From assembly GCA_041650255.1 (NCBI GenBank), contig JBAZLL010000005.1:153-64152 (forward strand): a stretch of 64,000 nt of DNA, read 5' to 3'. Source of the stretch: Candidatus Micrarchaeia archaeon. GTDB taxonomy: Archaea; Micrarchaeota; Micrarchaeia; Anstonellales; Anstonellaceae. The position numbers and the translations under genes were made by a program. The notes beneath the pieces were generated by a model, which saw only the letters and a program-made list of their open reading frames with translations, made no database searches and was not told where the DNA came from. Positions within the stretch are counted from its first letter, which is position 1. Each line of letters opens with the position of its first letter. Positions 11 through 61,471 of the stretch are shown here, in pieces.

Positions 11-1903
11 ATGGATAACGAAAATGCAACCTCTGCAATATTATCTTCTAAAATTGACTATTATCTGGATTCACTACCTACATCCGATGTTCTTTCGCTT
101 CAAAACGATTCAAGAGTATCTCTTTATTCTGCAAGTTCAAGCATCTACGGATTTTATGTCAATCCCGCCCCTGCAAAGAGCGGCGAATTAAATCCATTCT
201 CAATTCAGAAGGTTCGTCTCGGGTTGCAATATCTCATAGACCGCGATGCAGTTGTAGATGAAGTATTCGGCGGGCTTGCAGTACCCACCTCAACCAACCC
301 ATGGTCCGGTCACCCCTCATACGAGATAATTCGTAACGTCAGTGAGAGCTACAATATACAATCAAACTTGTCAAAAGCAAACTCTCTCATAACCGAGGGC
401 ATGACCGAGGCGGGCGCAACAAAAGAATCCGGAATTTGGACCTATAATAAAAAGCCGATAACACTTCAGCTGTTCTCCACAAATTATAGTGCATACAAAT
501 CAATGATGAATATCATTGCCACGTCGCTTGAAACGGCGGGCTTTGAAACGAATCTCTCAATCATAGTTTTCAACGTATCCTCCACGTTCCCGCCGTATTC
601 AACCGATCCCGCAAAGCTTGAGTGGCATCTTGCTCCGACTGGATGGATATACTACGATGTTCCCGGGCTTGATGCAACAAGCATTCCGGAAATGGATGAA
701 GGCGAAGAAGGCTGGTGGGTATACAACAACACCGCCATCAGTTCAATACGTGAAAAAATGAAAAATTGCAAAAACGAAGCAGAGTGGGAACTTCTTGACC
801 GCGAGCTTGCAAGTGCTTACCTAAATGATTCCACAGGTATCTGGCTCGCCGCTCCGGACAGCACATACGCGGCAAGCAGCAACGTTTACTCTCTTGCACA
901 GGACAAATTCATCGGCATCGGCACATACTCCAACATCCGTGAGGCATACACTTCAAAGAACAAAACGCTTGCAATCGGAGTGCCCGAGTTCTATTTTGAA
1001 GGCGATCCCTGGAACCCGGTGGTAATCAACAACATTTTCATGATGAACGTGGTAAATTCAATTTACGATCCGGTCATTCGCACAAACACAAATACACTTA
1101 AGATTGAGCCGTTCAGGTGGGGCTTTACAATTGTCGGAAGTCCGGTTTCAAACATTTCTGTCCCTTCCGACGCATTTGTCTGGAATTACTCAAGCAAGAG
1201 CTGGGATTCAATCGGCGGCGGAAAGCTTGCAAAGACCAAAGTGACTTATGATTTGTCAAATTATGTCGGAACAAAATGGCACCATGGGCAAAACATAACT
1301 TGGGCCGATGTTCTCTATTTTAGTGCAAGTACATGGGACAGAACCTATGATGCAAAAAAGAGAGAGATTTCATCCACCCGCTGGAAAGACTCACTTGATT
1401 CAATAGTGGGTATGAAAATAAATGGCGAATCTCTGGAAGTTTATCTTAGCGACTGGAATGTGGATGACGAATCTCTCTTGCAGTTTGCCAAGATGTTCCA
1501 GCGTGCCGCACCTCTTGAAGAATATGCGGCAATGGATTCGGTTGTCTTTGGCAAAAATGAATTCAAATACCAATACGGGGAGTCGGATCGCAATATCACC
1601 AGTCTGAGTCTTGTAAACGGCAGTCATGTGCAAGATGTGCTTGCCGCCGCTCACAATTTGAAGTTTGCGCAAGTTTTGCCAATGGTGAGTGCAGGCGGGA
1701 AAACCTATCTGACACAAGCCGAGCTTTCATCCCGTGTTGCCTCGCTTGATTCATGGAACGCCGCGCACAAGCATCTCATAATCAACGATGGCTCGTTTTA
1801 TTTTGACCGATACGATGCGAAAGACGGTTCTGTATATCTCGTGGCATTCAGAGATGGCACATATCCGTTCTCGCCCGGATATTGGAGAGGAGATTCATCA
1901 TAA
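11..1903 (+). CDS. Extracellular solute-binding protein, ABC family 5 (peptide/nickel type); probably 5'-truncated by the window edge
   Basis: 630-aa ORF whose frame stays open back to nt 2. The segment NPFSIQKVRLGLQYLIDRDAVVDEVFGGLAVP resembles the conserved core of SBP_bac_5 proteins. Size and composition fit a secreted binding protein. Confidence 0.65.
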   Translation: MDNENATSAILSSKIDYYLDSLPTSDVLSLQNDSRVSLYSASSSIYGFYVNPAPAKSGELNPFSIQKVRLGLQYLIDRDAVVDEVFGGLAVPTSTNPWSGHPSYEIIRNVSESYNIQSNLSKANSLITEGMTEAGATKESGIWTYNKKPITLQLFSTNYSAYKSMMNIIATSLETAGFETNLSIIVFNVSSTFPPYSTDPAKLEWHLAPTGWIYYDVPGLDATSIPEMDEGEEGWWVYNNTAISSIREKMKNCKNEAEWELLDRELASAYLNDSTGIWLAAPDSTYAASSNVYSLAQDKFIGIGTYSNIREAYTSKNKTLAIGVPEFYFEGDPWNPVVINNIFMMNVVNSIYDPVIRTNTNTLKIEPFRWGFTIVGSPVSNISVPSDAFVWNYSSKSWDSIGGGKLAKTKVTYDLSNYVGTKWHHGQNITWADVLYFSASTWDRTYDAKKREISSTRWKDSLDSIVGMKINGESLEVYLSDWNVDDESLLQFAKMFQRAAPLEEYAAMDSVVFGKNEFKYQYGESDRNITSLSLVNGSHVQDVLAAAHNLKFAQVLPMVSAGGKTYLTQAELSSRVASLDSWNAAHKHLIINDGSFYFDRYDAKDGSVYLVAFRDGTYPFSPGYWRGDSS

Positions 1904-8553: not shown

Positions 8554-8730
8554 GGGGTCGTGGCGTAAGCTGGTAGCGCGGCAGGCTCCAGGTGGCCCCT
8601 TTTCTTTCTTTGATAAAGAAAGAAAAGGCCCCAGGGTTCAAAAGAAAGAAACTCTGGACTTTCATCACGAAAGAAAGGCAAAAGGGCAATAAGAAACCTG
8701 CATGTTAGGGTTCAAATCCCTACGATCCCA
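8554..8730 (+). tRNA. tRNA-Trp (anticodon CCA) interrupted by a 104-nt intron at the canonical 37/38 position (intron 8592..8695)
   Basis: Folded by hand. Acceptor stem GGGGTCG/CGATCCC (one G-U pair). D arm GCGT-AAGCTGGTA-GCGC. Anticodon stem GCAGG (8581-8585)/CCTGC (8697-8701). Loop CTCCAG + A, with CCA at 8588-8590. T arm TAGGG-TTCAAAT-CCCTA. Discriminator A8730, and no encoded CCA end. Mature length 73 nt. Confidence 0.85.
8592..8695 (+). other. tRNA-Trp intron containing a 14-bp polypyrimidine/polypurine hairpin (8598..8628)
   Basis: CCTTTTCTTTCTTT-GAT-AAAGAAAGAAAAGG. I found no RUGAUGA/CUGA box pair on the sense strand and could not draw a canonical bulge-helix-bulge by eye. Confidence 0.7.
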
Positions 8731-8733
8731 CTA

Positions 8734-8774
8734 GGCTTTTTCTTTTTCTTTCGCGGAAAGAAAAAGAAAAACCC
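8734..8774 (+). terminator. Oligo-T tract plus a 16-bp perfect hairpin immediately 3' of tRNA-Trp
   Basis: A T5 run begins 7 nt after the discriminator base. The stem is TTTTTCTTTTTCTTTC-GCG-GAAAGAAAAAGAAAAA (8737-8752 / 8756-8771). Confidence 0.5.
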
Positions 8775-8903
8775 TGGAAAAAGAAAAAGAAAACTAAAAA
8801 CCAAAAAAAAGAAAACTAAACCCTGGAAAAAGAAAACTAAAACCCCAAAAAAAGAAAACTAAACCCTGGAAAAAGAAAACTAAAACCCCAAAAAAAGAAA
8901 ACT
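8768..8903. repeat. A-rich tandem repeat: two identical 43-nt units (8818-8860, 8861-8903) preceded by a degenerate ~50-nt copy
   Basis: The unit AAACCCTGGAAAAAGAAAACTAAAACCCCAAAAAAAGAAAACT was read directly from the sequence. There are no unique spacers. Confidence 0.75.
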
Positions 8904-13712: not shown

Positions 13713-14099
13713 ATGTTTAGCAACAAAAAAATTTCCAATGTACAAAGAGTTTGCAGCAAAAACGATCTTCCTGGTCCGGTGACCTTTCTTGGTCTTTATT
13801 TCATTTGGCGCCTCTCAAAGAGCCCCGCGCACGGCTATTCTCTTGTTGAGGAGGTGCGCACGAACACCCCGTTCAAGCACATAAAAATGTCCACCGTTTA
13901 TCTTGTGCTATCAAAGCTTGAAACATCCGGGCTGGTAAAAAGCGCAAGAAAGGCCGTTGGTATGCGCGTGCGCAAAATCTATACCACTACAAAAAAAGGC
14001 AGAGAGCTGTTTGAGAGCAAACGGGGAAAACATATGCACGGTCCCATTCGCGAATTCATGGCGGAATTGCTCGGATTAAAATTAGAGACAAAAGGCTGA
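13713..14099 (+). CDS. padR: PadR-family winged-helix transcriptional regulator
   Basis: 128 aa. LSKSPAHGYSLVEEV...VYLVLSKLETSGLVKS...RKIYTTTKKG is the PadR wHTH pattern. Divergently transcribed from the ABC-2 operon. Confidence 0.8.
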   Translation: MFSNKKISNVQRVCSKNDLPGPVTFLGLYFIWRLSKSPAHGYSLVEEVRTNTPFKHIKMSTVYLVLSKLETSGLVKSARKAVGMRVRKIYTTTKKGRELFESKRGKHMHGPIREFMAELLGLKLETKG

Positions 14100-14112
14100 A
14101 ATTCTCCACTCT

Positions 14113-14125
14113 AAAGTAATATAAG
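14113..14125 (+). promoter_or_regulatory. Putative archaeal TATA box for the C/D sRNA
   Basis: AAAGTAATATAAG is centred about 24 nt upstream of the sRNA 5' terminal stem. Confidence 0.4.
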
Positions 14126-14143
14126 ATTTCAAATTCATCCTTT

Positions 14144-14225
14144 TCTTAGATGATGATTCCAGTTTTACTGAGCACGGGCTTTTGCCCATGTGTTGATGAA
14201 TACCTGGAGCACTGATATTCTAAGA
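14144..14225 (+). ncRNA. Box C/D sRNA (2'-O-methylation guide). The D guide is complementary to the tRNA-Trp anticodon loop and predicts Cm34
   Basis: Terminal stem TCTTAG/CTAAGA. Box C ATGATGA (14150-56). 11-nt guide TTCCAGTTTTA. Box D' CTGA (14168-71). Internal GGGC-TTTT-GCCC hairpin. Box C' TGATGA (14194-99). 12-nt guide ATACCTGGAGCA (14200-11). Box D CTGA (14212-15). A T7 run follows at 14244-50. Confidence 0.8.
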
Positions 14226-14264
14226 TACATCAAACTCTTAGAATTTTTTTACAATGCGCCCGAT

Positions 14265-15110
14265 TCAGGCTTCGGGAACAATAGTATACGCGCAAATCTT
14301 TGTGCCTTCATTAACAAGTGTGATATTTGTTGCATTAGATTTTATTGATGCTGTTGAAGCGTTTATGCTGTACACTCGATGCGATTCATAATACTCTTTG
14401 ACAATTTCTTTCATTTCCCGTTTTGTCGGAGATACATAATATTCTCCTACTTCGAATTTTTTACACATCGCTTCAATTTTCTCCAACGCACTCTCAACTT
14501 TGTCCTGTTGTCTGTTCAACCAAATGTGCGGGGCCAAATAAGAAAGCCCTCCAATCATCGCACCCACTACTCCTCCAATTGCCGCACCCATATGGTTTTT
14601 TTTGAGCAAATACTCGCATGTCGCGCAGATGGAAACAATCCCCAAAGCCGCCTTCAATCCAATTTTATCCCATCTTATGTGTGCATTTTCAAAATATGCC
14701 TTGGTGTCGTGTGCCAGCGCATGATGGCAATTTTCGCTATTGTTGGTAATAATTCCGTCTGCATATCTTATCTTGAATCCGAGTGCTTTTTTGTGCAGTT
14801 TGCGCACTTTTTTATGTAATATTTTTTCTTGCGAGGATTCCAACTCTTGGTGCTCTATCAATCCCAATTTTTCACAAAACTCGTTTATTTTTCTAAATAC
14901 AGGCGTGGCCAAAATTTTTTGTTTTGGCTCTTTTGTATTTTGTGCCTCTATTTTTTTATTGAGCGTTTTTACTTTTTTATCAAATGCAATCAGTTCATTG
15001 ACAACTTTTTTCAGGCTCTTATCTTTTTCAAGTAGCAAATCTTCTCTATTTCCAAATTTCGTTTGTATTTTTTGCACTACCAAATTTTTTAGTATCTGCA
15101 TAAACACCAC
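14265..15110 (-). CDS. Hypothetical protein: Lys-rich coiled-coil N-terminal half, central glycine-zipper TM segment (GAAIGGVVGAMIGGLSY)
   Basis: 281-aa ORF with protein-like composition. The overlapping plus-strand ORFs are Phe/Ser-rich low-complexity artefacts. Confidence 0.55.
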   Translation of the reverse strand: MVFMQILKNLVVQKIQTKFGNREDLLLEKDKSLKKVVNELIAFDKKVKTLNKKIEAQNTKEPKQKILATPVFRKINEFCEKLGLIEHQELESSQEKILHKKVRKLHKKALGFKIRYADGIITNNSENCHHALAHDTKAYFENAHIRWDKIGLKAALGIVSICATCEYLLKKNHMGAAIGGVVGAMIGGLSYLAPHIWLNRQQDKVESALEKIEAMCKKFEVGEYYVSPTKREMKEIVKEYYESHRVYSINASTASIKSNATNITLVNEGTKICAYTIVPEA

Positions 15111-15254: not shown

Positions 15255-16016
15255 GTGTCTAAAAGAAAACGGGCAAAAAGCAAGCAAGCATCAGCTCATG
15301 CAGGGAAAAAAACCCTCATTGTGAAATTCTCCAAAAAATCAAGGGCAAAATATGCAAAACGCCCCAGTGCAAAATCAATGCACAACCAAATTTCGTCCAA
15401 AGAAAAAACAAAAAAAGACACAAAAAAGTTTGACGACCCGCTTGCAGTGCCTATGCCGAAAAGTTGGATGGACTCAAAATCATGCGCGCAAATAATCCAA
15501 TATCGCAAAACGCAATATCGCTTATGGAGCTGGGCGGTTGCCCTCTCAATTTTATTGCTTTTTAGCGTAGCAGGAATAGAAATTCTTTCCGATATGAACA
15601 TTCTTGCAAGTCCAAGTGAAAATCATGCTTTGATTCTGCAAGGTGCCGACATTCTCGCAATATTTGTAATCGGGCTTGAGCTTGTATCCAGTTTTTCGCA
15701 TTCCAAAAACAAGGCGCTTTTTGTAGCAGAAAACTGGCTGGCAATACTGGCTATTTTACCTATTGGTCTTTTCGCCCGCGCATTAAAGGCATTTGAAGTG
15801 TTTGCATTAATGGAGGAAATATCCATTTTGCGCGGCTTTCAAATGGCGGGAAAATTCGGTGAGATTTCAAACATTGTGCCTTCTCTTGAAATTCCGTTTG
15901 AGATAAAATTAAGCGAACTATTCTCCGGTATTTTTGTTTCGGTGCGCCAAGTTTTTGCCTCTCTTAATCCCATTTTTCTGATTCTCAAAAGCGCGATATT
16001 GCGCATTTTAAGATAA
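15255..16016 (+). CDS. Membrane protein with a Lys-rich cytoplasmic tail and a voltage-sensor/ion-transport-like 4-TM region but no obvious pore
   Basis: 253 aa, GTG start as given by the track. The TM segments ADILAIFVIGLELVSSF and NWLAILAILPIGLFARALKAFEVF resemble S2-S4 of Ion_trans proteins. This is a weak assignment. Confidence 0.4.
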   Translation: MSKRKRAKSKQASAHAGKKTLIVKFSKKSRAKYAKRPSAKSMHNQISSKEKTKKDTKKFDDPLAVPMPKSWMDSKSCAQIIQYRKTQYRLWSWAVALSILLLFSVAGIEILSDMNILASPSENHALILQGADILAIFVIGLELVSSFSHSKNKALFVAENWLAILAILPIGLFARALKAFEVFALMEEISILRGFQMAGKFGEISNIVPSLEIPFEIKLSELFSGIFVSVRQVFASLNPIFLILKSAILRILR

Positions 16017-16094: not shown

Positions 16095-17144
16095 ATGGAA
16101 TGCAAAAACCTCTTGCCTTTGATGGCAATATTGCTTATTTTGCCGGCACTACTGATTGCCGGGTGTCTCGGCTCTGGGAAAACACAAGCGGAGCCTACTT
16201 ATACTCCTCCGGCTTTAGAAGAAAAACTTTATCCTGTTGTGGTGCAGGAAGAGCCGGCCGCTCCGAATGTAACTAAATTGGTCCCGTTTGAGCTCACATT
16301 CATCAATGTCGGATACGGCGACGCATCCCTTATACAGTCCGAGGGGAAAAACATTCTAATTGACACCGGACCGGATGCAGATGCCTCAAAAATAAAATCG
16401 GTTCTTGCATCAAAAGGGGTAAAAAAAATAGACCTGCTCGTGCTCTCCGAAGATGATATACTTTTTGTGAACGGCGCCGCAGACATCTTGCGCTCATATC
16501 CCGTGGATGAAGTTTGGGTATCTGGCGGCAGACCAAAGGCAGGATTTATGCCAGTCATTCTTCCGCTCGCAAAAAACTCAATTGTAAAAACCGTGCTTTA
16601 CGGGGACAATTATACACTTGGGAACCTAAGCCTCACGGTTCTTAATCCGTTCCCCGGCGAAAACAACACAAGTCCGGACCTTGACTCAATCGTTCTGAAA
16701 GCAAAATACGCAGATTTTTGCTCGCTTATTTTCAGCAACTCGGAAGCATCCGGTGCAACCGGCTCTGATGGCGGAACAGTATTTGGCGGTGTTGACAGCC
16801 GCATAATTTCAGGTCCGATTTCAATTCAAAACTGCAAAGTGCTAAAGGTATCCCACCACGGTTCCGGAAATTCCGCATCATTTCAGCTTCTAAATGAAGT
16901 GAATCCGGACGTCGGTGTAATCAGCGCGGGGCTCAATTTGCCGGAAAACAAATATCCCGAGCCAACTGCGATTCGCAGATTGCTTTTGCGCAACATGTCT
17001 GTTTATGTGACGGACAAGCTCGGCTCAATAACCGTGCTCTCTGATGGAAACGAATACAAGATGGAAACCGAATATCCACGCGATGAAAAATATGCGATTT
17101 TCATAAACGATGTAGGGCAGGGCGGGCTTTTGTACTGGAGATAA
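16095..17144 (+). CDS. ComEC/Rec2-related metallo-beta-lactamase-fold hydrolase, stand-alone lipoprotein form
   Basis: Lipobox LLIAGC. INVGYGDASLIQSEGKNILIDTG and KVSHHGSGNS match the ComEC C-terminal MBL domain signatures. No competence-channel TM domain is present. Confidence 0.75.
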   Translation: MECKNLLPLMAILLILPALLIAGCLGSGKTQAEPTYTPPALEEKLYPVVVQEEPAAPNVTKLVPFELTFINVGYGDASLIQSEGKNILIDTGPDADASKIKSVLASKGVKKIDLLVLSEDDILFVNGAADILRSYPVDEVWVSGGRPKAGFMPVILPLAKNSIVKTVLYGDNYTLGNLSLTVLNPFPGENNTSPDLDSIVLKAKYADFCSLIFSNSEASGATGSDGGTVFGGVDSRIISGPISIQNCKVLKVSHHGSGNSASFQLLNEVNPDVGVISAGLNLPENKYPEPTAIRRLLLRNMSVYVTDKLGSITVLSDGNEYKMETEYPRDEKYAIFINDVGQGGLLYWR

Positions 17145-60046: not shown

Positions 60047-61244
60047 CCTTCTCTGCCAGCATCTTCCTGAATTTCGGATCCTCCATTACAGCACTCATGA
60101 AACTGTCGGCCTCGCGCCGCTTCTTCTCAAGCTGGATGGCCGCCTTCATCTCCAAAGCCATCCCGCACTCCACGCAGAACTTGGCCGAAATCGGATTCAT
60201 CTTCTCGCAGCTGGGGCAGGTGCGGGGCTGCAAAGGCTCGCTTGTCATAACGTCCCTTTTCAGAAGCCCCCGCTTCTCCAGCATCTTCTTGTCGATATCT
60301 GCGCCAGAAAGATGAACATACGTGGCGGGCATTTTCGAGCCTCCCGTCCAGCCAAAGATGATTTTCAGCTCCTGCTCTGTAAAGTCGGTAGCCAGGTGGG
60401 TAGCCCGTGAGTGCCTGAACAGGTGGGGGTAAATCCGCTTCTTCAATTTCGCCCGATTTTTTGCCTTAATCAGGATGTTGCGCAGAGTAACGTTGCTGTC
60501 CAGTGCCCCATCGTTCCGGGCTACGGTAAACAGATGCGCCTGCGGGTTGTCTGCCTGTGGGTGGTGGTTGAGCCAAATCCTCAAGTCAGGCACCGAATCA
60601 ATCAGCCGAACCCGCCTCATGCCGGTTTTTCCGTCCAGAATCAAAGAAGCCCCGTAATCGTCAAAAGTCAGGTTGCGAATCTCCAAATCAAGTAATTCTC
60701 CGGCCCGACACCCGCTCTCATACAGGAGCATAATCAAGGCCCGGTCGCGGGGGTTATCGCACACATCCGCCAGTTTCCGAACGTCGTCCTTGGTCAAAAT
60801 GTCCTCGGGCAGTTTCCGGCGCTCAAACCCGTGCGTTTTGATCCACGAAACCTGCTCGGGGTAATTGTTCTCGCCAAAGAGCCACTTGTAAAACGCCTTG
60901 ATACTCACTTTCAAGGAGCGGCTTTTGTAATCGGCGTTCTCGTTCAAGAAGTCGATCATGTCGTCTTTGGTCAAGTCCTTGAAATTCCGTTTCTTGAAAA
61001 ACCTGGCCAGTTTGTTGAGGCAGTAAATATAGATGTAACGAGTCGATGGTGCCATTCCCTGCGCCGATTTCTCGCGCTCGAAAGCGTGCAGGGCCTCAAA
61101 ATTGGGTTTCGTCAAGCTCCTGAGTCCACTTAGAAGCTTGACGGGATTTCGTTGGCTTCTCATACTGTATTTGAGCAACTGAAGCTTATAACCTCTGCTC
61201 CGTCTGTCGTCATTTTTGGCATCAGTCCGTCCGTCTCTCATCAT
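60009..61244 (-). CDS. Tyrosine recombinase/integrase (XerC/D-like) with a C-terminal zinc-ribbon extension
   Basis: 411 aa. A SAM-like N-domain, then catalytic residues in LLYESGCRAGEL (Arg), HLFRHSRATHLA (H-x-x-R) and PATYVHLS (Tyr). C-terminal CPSCEKMNPISAKFCVECG. Confidence 0.9.
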   Translation of the reverse strand: MMRDGRTDAKNDDRRSRGYKLQLLKYSMRSQRNPVKLLSGLRSLTKPNFEALHAFEREKSAQGMAPSTRYIYIYCLNKLARFFKKRNFKDLTKDDMIDFLNENADYKSRSLKVSIKAFYKWLFGENNYPEQVSWIKTHGFERRKLPEDILTKDDVRKLADVCDNPRDRALIMLLYESGCRAGELLDLEIRNLTFDDYGASLILDGKTGMRRVRLIDSVPDLRIWLNHHPQADNPQAHLFTVARNDGALDSNVTLRNILIKAKNRAKLKKRIYPHLFRHSRATHLATDFTEQELKIIFGWTGGSKMPATYVHLSGADIDKKMLEKRGLLKRDVMTSEPLQPRTCPSCEKMNPISAKFCVECGMALEMKAAIQLEKKRREADSFMSAVMEDPKFRKMLAEKAMEMGLERKLEV

Positions 61245-61263
61245 AAATCAGAGATCACACTCT

Positions 61264-61411
61264 TACATCATCTGCCGCAATTATTATCTCATCCATCTCT
61301 CATTAAGGTTTTCTTTTTGGATAAGCCCTAGCCTTTTTCTTTTCTTAAAAGAAAAAGGCTTGGGTACATCATCTGCCGTATTTAGTTCTCATCCATCTCT
61401 CATTAAGGTTT
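61264..61411. repeat. Two ~47-nt direct repeats (61264-61311, 61365-61411) flanking a 17-bp imperfect hairpin (61326-61364), immediately upstream of the integrase start
   Basis: The repeats share TACATCATCTGCCG and TCTCATCCATCTCTCATTAAGGTTT. The hairpin is CCCTAGCCTTTTTCTTTT-CTT-AAAAGAAAAAGGCTTGGG, with one mismatch. Confidence 0.65.
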
Positions 61412-61471
61412 CTCCTCAAACCTTGCTTAAGTTTTTAAACAAAGTCTTGTTTGTGTTAATGGGATATAATA

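Follow-up and report, generated by a model that had tools for sequence, protein, structure and literature searches.

A separately encoded box C/D guide RNA of Micrarchaeota predicted to direct methylation of C34 in intron-containing tRNA-Trp

In Euryarchaeota, the intron of tRNA-Trp itself encodes a box C/D guide, as in sR50 of Pyrococcus and the tRNA-Trp intron of Haloferax volcanii, and both duplexes of this guide with its target, reportedly described by Clouet d'Orval in 2001, span an exon-intron junction. The ribose methylations Cm34 and Um39 of tRNA-Trp are both C/D-guided in these archaea (PMC7994747, PMC11408192), and according to Singh 2004, as cited, the intronic guide acts in trans, as a ribonucleoprotein (RNP), on the pre-tRNA. 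A different solution is seen in Pyrobaculum, where a stand-alone C/D small RNA (sRNA), sR26, is predicted to target C34 of tRNA-Trp (PMC6009581). Here we describe a related system in 64,000 nucleotides (nt) of DNA from a Candidatus Micrarchaeia archaeon (contig JBAZLL010000005.1 of assembly GCA_041650255.1, positions 153 to 64,152); this whole stretch is referred to as the window. We consider it highly probable that positions 14144-14225(+) of the window specify an independently transcribed C/D sRNA, which directs formation of Cm34 on pre-tRNA-Trp before splicing and which is an orthologue, with a drifted D' guide, of a family of guides found in Micrarchaeota.

The guide gene and its target

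The RNA encoded at 14144-14225(+) is a genuine, separately encoded archaeal box C/D guide RNA. It has a box C of the RUGAUGA type near its 5´ end, a CUGA box D near its 3´ end, internal D' and C' boxes and guides within the usual length of about 10-13 nt. The parts of the gene are as follows.

14118-14124 (+): TATA-like element AATATAA, 26-32 nt upstream of box C
14144-14149 (+): 5´ strand of the terminal stem, TCTTAG, paired with 14220-14225 in the minimum-free-energy fold
14150-14156 (+): box C, ATGATGA
14157-14167 (+): D' guide TTCCAGTTTTA, 11 nt, a decayed version of the family position-39 guide (consensus GATGCAGGTTTG)
14168-14171 (+): box D', CTGA
14172-14193 (+): D'-C' spacer, 22 nt, with the short hairpin GCAC-GGGC-TTTT-GCCC-AT-GTGT
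14194-14199 (+): box C', TGATGA
14200-14211 (+): D guide ATACCTGGAGCA, 12 nt, antisense to G31-G37 of pre-tRNA-Trp and three intron bases
14212-14215 (+): box D, CTGA
14220-14225 (+): 3´ strand of the terminal stem, CTAAGA, offset by 4 nt from box D
14244-14250 (+): run of seven T, by its sequence probably an archaeal terminator, with the hairpin TTCTAAGA/TCTTAGAA ahead of it

Rereading of 14000-14400 bore out each element that the original prediction had named here, i.e. the canonical boxes, the guides of 11 and 12 nt, the terminal stem, the TATA-like element and the T7 run. The gene occupies a gap of 165 nt. On one side is the stop codon of a gene assigned by Pfam to the PadR family (13713-14099), and on the other a convergent open reading frame (ORF), 14265-15110, terminates. 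A search for the strict four-box layout gave one occurrence in the 64-kb window and none in 300 windows simulated by a first-order Markov model. The RNA strand folds better than its shuffles (z = -3.8), and the terminal stem of 6 bp, as expected for a kink-turn formed by boxes C and D, is part of the minimum-free-energy fold. The same fold contains a pairing between the two guides of the RNA: the D' guide includes UCCAG, the bases U33-G37 of tRNA-Trp, and is thus complementary to the RNA's own D guide (14203-14210). This pairing may be a coincidence.

The presumed target is a tRNA-Trp(CCA) gene at 8554-8731 with an intron of 104 nt. It was found by ARAGORN with introns allowed, and was missed by default ARAGORN and by Rfam at the gathering threshold. 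We set the intron at the canonical 37/38 position, so that G37 stays in the mature tRNA. The target region is composed of the following parts.

8554-8591 (+): 5´ exon of tRNA-Trp(CCA), 100% identical to the exon of locus L019 (L-numbers denote retrieved genomic or metagenomic loci)
8585-8594 (+): target of the D guide, G31-G37 and intron bases 1-3, with C34 at 8588; nine Watson-Crick pairs and one G-U pair
8592-8695 (+): intron of 104 nt at the canonical 37/38 position, with two hairpins having one pyrimidine and one purine arm
8696-8731 (+): 3´ exon of tRNA-Trp

The 3´ exon is likewise identical between the window and L019. Neither TGATGA nor CTGA occurs within 8592-8695, and the intron thus has no C/D boxes of its own.

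The original prediction that the D guide pairs with pre-tRNA-Trp over the exon-intron junction and selects C34 is supported by the duplex. It crosses the 5´ exon-intron junction with nine contiguous Watson-Crick pairs. Counted upstream from box D, the fifth base is G14207; its partner is C8588, the C34 with which the anticodon begins and the base selected by the N+5 rule. Nine contiguous Watson-Crick pairs are the accepted criterion for a target, and a Watson-Crick pair at N+5 is needed for methylation (PMC6009581). The window contains just two copies of GCTCCAGGT, one at 8585-8593(+) and the other, in complementary form, at 14202-14210 within the guide. The energy of the duplex with the precursor, -19.3 kcal/mol, was reached by none of 2000 shuffled guides.

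On these grounds we propose the following course of events. The guide RNA would assemble with L7Ae, Nop5 and fibrillarin. Its D guide would bind pre-tRNA-Trp that still has its intron and is transcribed 5.5 kb upstream. The pairing would extend from G31 to intron base 3 and place the wobble base C34 at the methylation position, leading to Cm34 before the intron is removed. In the family as a whole, the D' guide would normally select C39 across the 3´ intron-exon junction. Genes for parts of this machinery were seen in related loci which also bear the guide: fibrillarin (PF01269, 270-276 bits) in L032 and L097, and L7Ae in L016.

A family of guides in Micrarchaeota

A scan of one genome per prokaryotic species with the pattern TGATGANNNCCTGGAGCNCTGA returned 49 loci, 37 of them archaeal and 12 bacterial. 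The archaeal loci comprise 32 from Micrarchaeota lineages (28 Micrarchaeota/Micrarchaeia, three Anstonellales of the class Micrarchaeia and one 'ainarchaeum'), three from unclassified archaea, and one each from Njordarchaeota and Nitrososphaerota. The bacterial loci lack upstream boxes, and their number agrees with what chance would give. About 35 further members came from a metagenome scan. After removal of duplicates there are 48 distinct sequences, nearly all from Micrarchaeota and all of one architecture: box C (ATGATGA/ATGAAGA/GTGATGA/TTGATGA), D' guide GATGCAGGTTTG, CTGA, an insert of 4-110 nt, TGATGA, NNNCCTGGAGCN and CTGA. Box C and box D' have the correct spacing, and the core YNGGTTT of the D' guide is present in 45 of the 48. 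The inserts between D' and C' form hairpins of unrelated sequence. The D guide of the window, ATACCTGGAGCA, conforms to the family signature NNNCCUGGAGCN that selects C34. The family D' guide complements the last two intron bases and A38-U45 of tRNA-Trp, and its N+5 position faces C39 (L062). This previously undescribed family consists of dual guides, predicted from their complementarity to specify both Cm34 and Cm39 of tRNA-Trp.

None of about 70 family loci is intronic or flanked by tRNA exons; a trans-encoded guide is the rule across Micrarchaeota. It had been suggested that in this genome the guide was moved to a trans gene about 5.5 kb off while the intron was kept. The trans gene and the retained intron stand, and only the view that this arrangement is special to the present genome has to be given up in favor of a Micrarchaeota-wide one. 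Independent transcription of the family is supported because a TATA-like hexamer is enriched upstream of box C, where it starts 28-33 nt before the box in 32 of the 48 members, compared with 5 of 44 in a downstream control. When a model, R1, was built from 27 members with short inserts, the window being left out, it matched the window at 14146-14219(+) and nowhere else (35 bits, E=2.5e-10).

The proteins of the window are 45-80% identical to those of family loci, and the window is clearly micrarchaeal. The surroundings of the guide are conserved as well, with tRNA-Trp, the sRNA, the gene of a 253-aa membrane protein and a gene for a metallo-beta-lactamase (MBL) fold protein following one another. 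In L019, tRNA-Trp, the guide and the MBL-fold gene stand in the order seen in the window; in L030, the guide is directly upstream of homologues of the window ORFs 15255-16016 and 16095-17144; and the guides of L030, L019, L112, L114 and L117 all adjoin homologues of one or both of these ORFs. In the window this neighborhood is interrupted by an ABC/PadR cluster and one ORF. The cluster (assigned by Pfam), which separates tRNA-Trp from the guide, is taken as an insertion: the distance between the two genes is about 5.4-5.5 kb here, compared with 0.6-2.7 kb in L019, L062, L114 and L117, and the latter range is about what we regard as ancestral. The extra ORF (14265-15110(-), 281 aa, no Pfam match) stands between the guide and the conserved downstream genes, and is absent from that place in L030, L112 and L114.

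Six loci were retrieved independently of any guide pattern, by protein identity alone, as carriers of homologues of the MBL-fold protein of the window. Three of them (L112, L114 and L117) bear a guide in the same intergenic neighborhood, with NNACCTGGAGCN; in L114 and L117 the C' box has the variant form TGATCA, which lies outside the reach of the search pattern. The MBL-fold protein of L112 is the closest relative found (55% identical to that of the window). The D guide of L112 equals ATACCTGGAGCA exactly, with 0/12 changes, and its D' guide, GATACAGGTTTG, is intact. Orthology is confirmed because of this synteny and of the loci retrieved via a neighboring protein. The idea that boxes and complementarity came together by chance, for which the shortness of each motif and nothing more can be said, is refuted by the simulated windows, the shuffled guides, the E value of R1 and the syntenic conservation in many genomes, and its probability is practically nil.

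The D' side of the window guide has a different history. TTCCAGTTTTA is the sole D' guide of the family without the GGTTT core: the ...GCAGGUUUN core, complementary to the last two intron bases and bases 38-45 and selecting C39, is lacking. It agrees with the family consensus at 7 of 11 positions, and a U stands opposite C39 exactly at N+5. Because a Watson-Crick pair is required there, this drifted guide is predicted to be inactive on C39. The tRNA itself has stayed the same: while the consensus D' guide would pair with the tRNA of the window at -15.4 kcal/mol (precursor) or -17.2 kcal/mol (mature), the best duplex of the window D' guide with the tRNA has -8.1 kcal/mol, a value reached by 10% of shuffled guides. 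Its best site in pre-tRNA-Trp is a match of seven pairs to the D-loop, with G-U at N+5. In agreement with the original prediction, which had noted no convincing target in the window, only chance-level matches were seen: neither the tRNA nor the window nor the retrieved loci, sequences which do not include rRNA, offer TTCCAGTTTTA a target above chance. A target in rRNA, an idea tied to the sequence UAAAACUGGAA, is unsupported and not favored by the comparative picture, in which the D' guide does not appear to be an rRNA guide. No second guide for position 39 was detected in the window.

Erosion of the D' side is seen elsewhere too. The D' box of L019 reads CATA, and the D' guides of L114 and L117 form at most seven contiguous pairs. 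The C34 guide is invariant throughout the family, including the lineages with an eroded D' side. Such erosion fits relaxed selection on methylation at position 39; in Haloferax, loss of guided methylations is tolerated, according to Joardar 2008, as cited. One may go further and regard the window copy as a decaying, non-functional relic of the family, since its D' guide differs from that of L112 at 5 of 12 positions and mismatches C39, and since its relatives are eroded on the same side. However, none of the four boxes departs from the canonical form, the copy has kept its promoter-like element, stem and T-run, and the D guide has not changed relative to L112 although the neighboring MBL-fold proteins are only 55% identical. 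A relic is therefore a most improbable explanation, slightly behind even the splice-site function weighed below.

Several peculiarities were noticed within the family and around it. A GC-richer clade (L003, L005, L007, L021, L022, L027, L032, L044, L058, L065, L068) is set apart by a box C that reads ATGAAGA, or ATGAGGA in L065, and by a D'-C' insert of 107-110 nt that is conserved and folds into a three-way junction with five covarying pairs. The 3´ end of RNase P RNA was considered as the source of the conserved sequence preceding C' in L003, L005, L007 and others, and was rejected; Rfam reports no RNase P there and the sequence is the D'-C' insert itself. In most of these loci (L005, L007, L022, L027, L044 and L048, as judged from the coding sequence conserved upstream) the guide follows a putative carA gene (carbamoyl-phosphate synthase small subunit).

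In two loci (L059:390-600 and L091:11588-11830) another tRNA gene, called by ARAGORN as Glu and Arg, respectively, each with a long intron, has its 3´ end 3-4 nt before the guide begins. This arrangement may mean that tRNA and sRNA form a dicistronic unit. In L033, L004, L083 and L089 (Nitrososphaerota, Njordarchaeota) there are compact C/D sRNAs that stand alone and whose D guide, NAGCCTGGAGCN, is of a similar C34 type; their D' guide is different and ends in ...ACCGGT. In L113 (4528-4621), a tRNA-Trp of Micrarchaeota has an intron of 21 nt that starts with A instead of G, and within 21 kb no guide was detected with the family model. The guide of L113 may have co-varied beyond the reach of the model, or it may have been lost.

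The intron as guide partner and as structural module

The D guide would bind the precursor more strongly than the spliced tRNA, with which seven pairs and -14.2 kcal/mol are left of the -19.3 kcal/mol. Both guide and tRNA-Trp are available from six genomes (the window, L019, L114, L117, L062 and L012). The intron base 2 is paired with the guide in five of the six (U-A four times, A-U once), and so is intron base 3 (U-A, A-U, G-C and G-U). The covariation score between guide and intron is 0.139, compared with 0.039 +/- 0.030 in shuffles, of which 3 in 500 reach the observed value. The 5´ end of the guide thus tends to covary, modestly, with the first intron bases, and because of this tendency methylation before splicing, as originally predicted, is supported along with the stronger precursor duplex. 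A comparison of orthologues for co-variation, which the prediction had called for, gives the same modest signal at intron bases 2 and 3.

Alternatively, the guide might act on the spliced mature tRNA-Trp, or on both forms, with its intron pairs being incidental. The seven Watson-Crick pairs with G31-G37 persist on the mature tRNA, the target of Pyrobaculum sR26 is predicted on the mature molecule (PMC6009581), and the family D' guide pairs with mature tRNA no worse than with the precursor. On the other hand, seven pairs fall short of the nine contiguous pairs that make a target credible. Position 4 of the guide is C in all retrieved members (in most of them imposed by the search pattern) and faces G1 of the intron, a place taken by A38 after splicing, and a tendency to covary links guide position 3 to intron base 2 and guide position 2 to intron base 3. 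We regard action on the mature tRNA as improbable, and the precursor as the likelier substrate.

The position of the duplex allows for yet another explanation, namely an RNA that serves as a chaperone or a regulator of splicing and whose main effect is to mask or remodel the 5´ splice site, methylation being secondary or absent. The duplex does cover the splice site. By our reading, the bulge-helix-bulge of the intron is relaxed, since only two of four central helix pairs are possible (C32-G and U33-A), and conserved guide-target pairings that do not methylate are documented in Pyrobaculum (PMC6009581). The relaxed motif is also compatible with a splicing endonuclease of the epsilon2 type, and Micrarchaeum has such an enzyme, of broad specificity (PMC3239211). 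What makes a mainly splicing-related role very unlikely is the perfect Watson-Crick pair G-C34 at N+5 in every member, together with canonical boxes and the homologous euryarchaeal system, which methylates C34.

There are nevertheless observations that weigh against a guide for Cm34 acting on the precursor. The terminal stem is atypical in its offset of 4 nt from box D. Rfam gives no family match for the guide RNA at the gathering threshold, and at a relaxed threshold its sole C/D match is weak (RF01133 sR3, 21.5 bits, E=0.032, against a gathering score of 41); the proposed check of the region with a C/D model thus failed for Rfam beyond this weak match and succeeded for the family model R1. 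The covariation comes from six tRNA/guide pairs only, and both at intron base 2 and at intron base 3 one of the six is mismatched. Genes of this genome for fibrillarin, Nop5 and L7Ae are not found within the 64-kb window. Finally, the first two scans used the window's own C'-guide-D pattern, so that conservation of the D guide among their results is partly by construction; this bias is offset because of the model match, the synteny and the three protein-anchored loci.

Besides its role in pairing, the intron resembles the guide genes in structure. In the 751 kb of DNA compared, the best match to the tRNA-Trp intron of the window is the D'-C' insert of the guide in L026 (29/31 and 14/14 bases; E about 1e-6), and the next best are the guide inserts of L016 and then of L008/L045. 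The guide insert of L112 contains the same module of two hairpins. The intron (8592-8695) is colinear and in the same orientation with L026:507-553, L016:3881-3910, L008/L045 and L112 near 1165-1240(-). The shared sequence is CCCCTTTTCTTTC..GAAAGAAAAGG followed by GGCCCnnGGGTTCAAAAGAAAG, and the module consists of 5´ GNG-CCCC, a hairpin with pyrimidine and purine arms and a second hairpin with the loop GGGTTCAAAAGAAAG, followed in L008 and L026 by 3´ AATAA(G/A)AA. Within the window it is unique to the intron. Strictly defined hairpins with such arms number 13 in all DNA compared, and eight of them are inside or adjacent to either a guide for tRNA-Trp or a gene for this tRNA.

A common origin of the stand-alone guide gene and the tRNA-Trp intron, or exchange of a structured module between them, is a tentative proposal that we consider possible, though not the likelier outcome. 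The trans guide could have arisen from an intronic guide, for example when an excised intron was re-inserted near the tRNA gene and the intron then lost its boxes, or the reverse could have happened. Alternatively, a small hairpin element could have repeatedly inserted or duplicated among small-RNA genes and this intron. Two simpler ideas were considered. An origin of the guide as an antisense copy of the tRNA gene was rejected, as the intron-like insert is sense-oriented; and pairing of the hairpin inserts with an intron hairpin of the same cell is not supported, since the window and L062 have introns with long hairpins and yet their guide inserts are short and unrelated.

Hairpins of this kind recur in other places. 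One of 20 bp, with pyrimidine and purine arms, is found at 8733-8775, directly 3´ of tRNA-Trp, and similar ones follow the guide in L014, L030 and L035; they may be 3´-end or terminator structures of small-RNA genes in Micrarchaeota. In L024:380-500(-), L112:970-1160(-), L014 near 1085-1175 and L018 near 1420-1565, the D guide is duplicated around a hairpin element. Box D is duplicated along with it in L024, L112 and L018 (CCTGGAGCNCTGA in L024 and L112), and in L024 and L112 the two copies of the D guide show no difference, even at the variable base. Its appearance is that of a target-site duplication or of a 3´ extension that has been conserved.

The window contains a second candidate box C/D sRNA at 61222-61271(-), with the layout ATGATGT-AAGAGTGTGATCT-CTGA-TTTA-TGATGA-GAGACGGACGGA-CTGA, which hints at a broader use of C/D guides in this organism. 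Next to it, at 61266-61412, a hairpin element with pyrimidine and purine arms (61307-61364) is placed between two direct repeats of about 45 nt, which correspond to the 5´ flank and box C of the candidate. In L024, the sequence that directly follows the tRNA-Trp guide matches this element with 84% identity over 58 nt.

Relation to described guide systems

The ribose methylation of the tRNA-Trp anticodon arm is an archaeal C/D-guided tRNA modification that has been studied in depth, and according to our predictions it is hard-wired also in the reduced genomes of Micrarchaeota. In a literature search we found no link of DPANN or Micrarchaeota to C/D sRNAs. The family offers a comparative data set for exchange between tRNA introns and guides, with about 50 distinct guides, eight tRNA-Trp genes and the module shared by intron and inserts. 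It also provides a model that can be used at once to annotate, in these genomes, an RNA gene and a tRNA-Trp with intron, both of which are overlooked by standard pipelines.

Of the described RNAs, Rfam RF01133 (sR3) shares only the generic C/D architecture with the window RNA. The guides are unrelated and the score lies below the gathering threshold of 41, so that the window RNA is not a member. The tRNA-Met intron with C/D-like features in Nanoarchaeum equitans (PMC3491384) connects tRNA introns and C/D elements in a DPANN archaeon; it differs in being intronic, in belonging to a different tRNA and in not forming a separate gene.

A stand-alone trans guide for C34 of tRNA-Trp is already known in sR26 of Pyrobaculum, which is likewise encoded independently. 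The known likeness is in the target and in the separate gene. sR26 belongs to another phylum, its target is predicted on mature tRNA and no guide for position 39 is reported. The euryarchaeal intron-encoded guide has the same substrate, and the family described here has the same targets, its D guide selecting C34 and its D' guide position 39. The geometry spanning the junctions is also common to both, in the window for C34 and the 5´ junction, and for position 39 and the 3´ junction in the family only. Unlike in Euryarchaeota, however, the guide of Micrarchaeota stands apart as a gene that has a promoter-like element to itself and is 0.6-5.5 kb away from the tRNA gene. The intron of the window is kept without C/D boxes, and of the two guides only that for C34 is intact there.

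The target is thus a classic one, and the proposed mechanism does not depart from that of other archaeal C/D RNPs. What is new is the lineage, a separate gene that still uses intron bases for full pairing, and the variable, structured D'-C' inserts. Taken as a whole, we suggest that Micrarchaeota represent a third organization, in which a separate gene would read the intron-containing precursor, standing between the intronic guides of Euryarchaeota and the stand-alone guide of Pyrobaculum.

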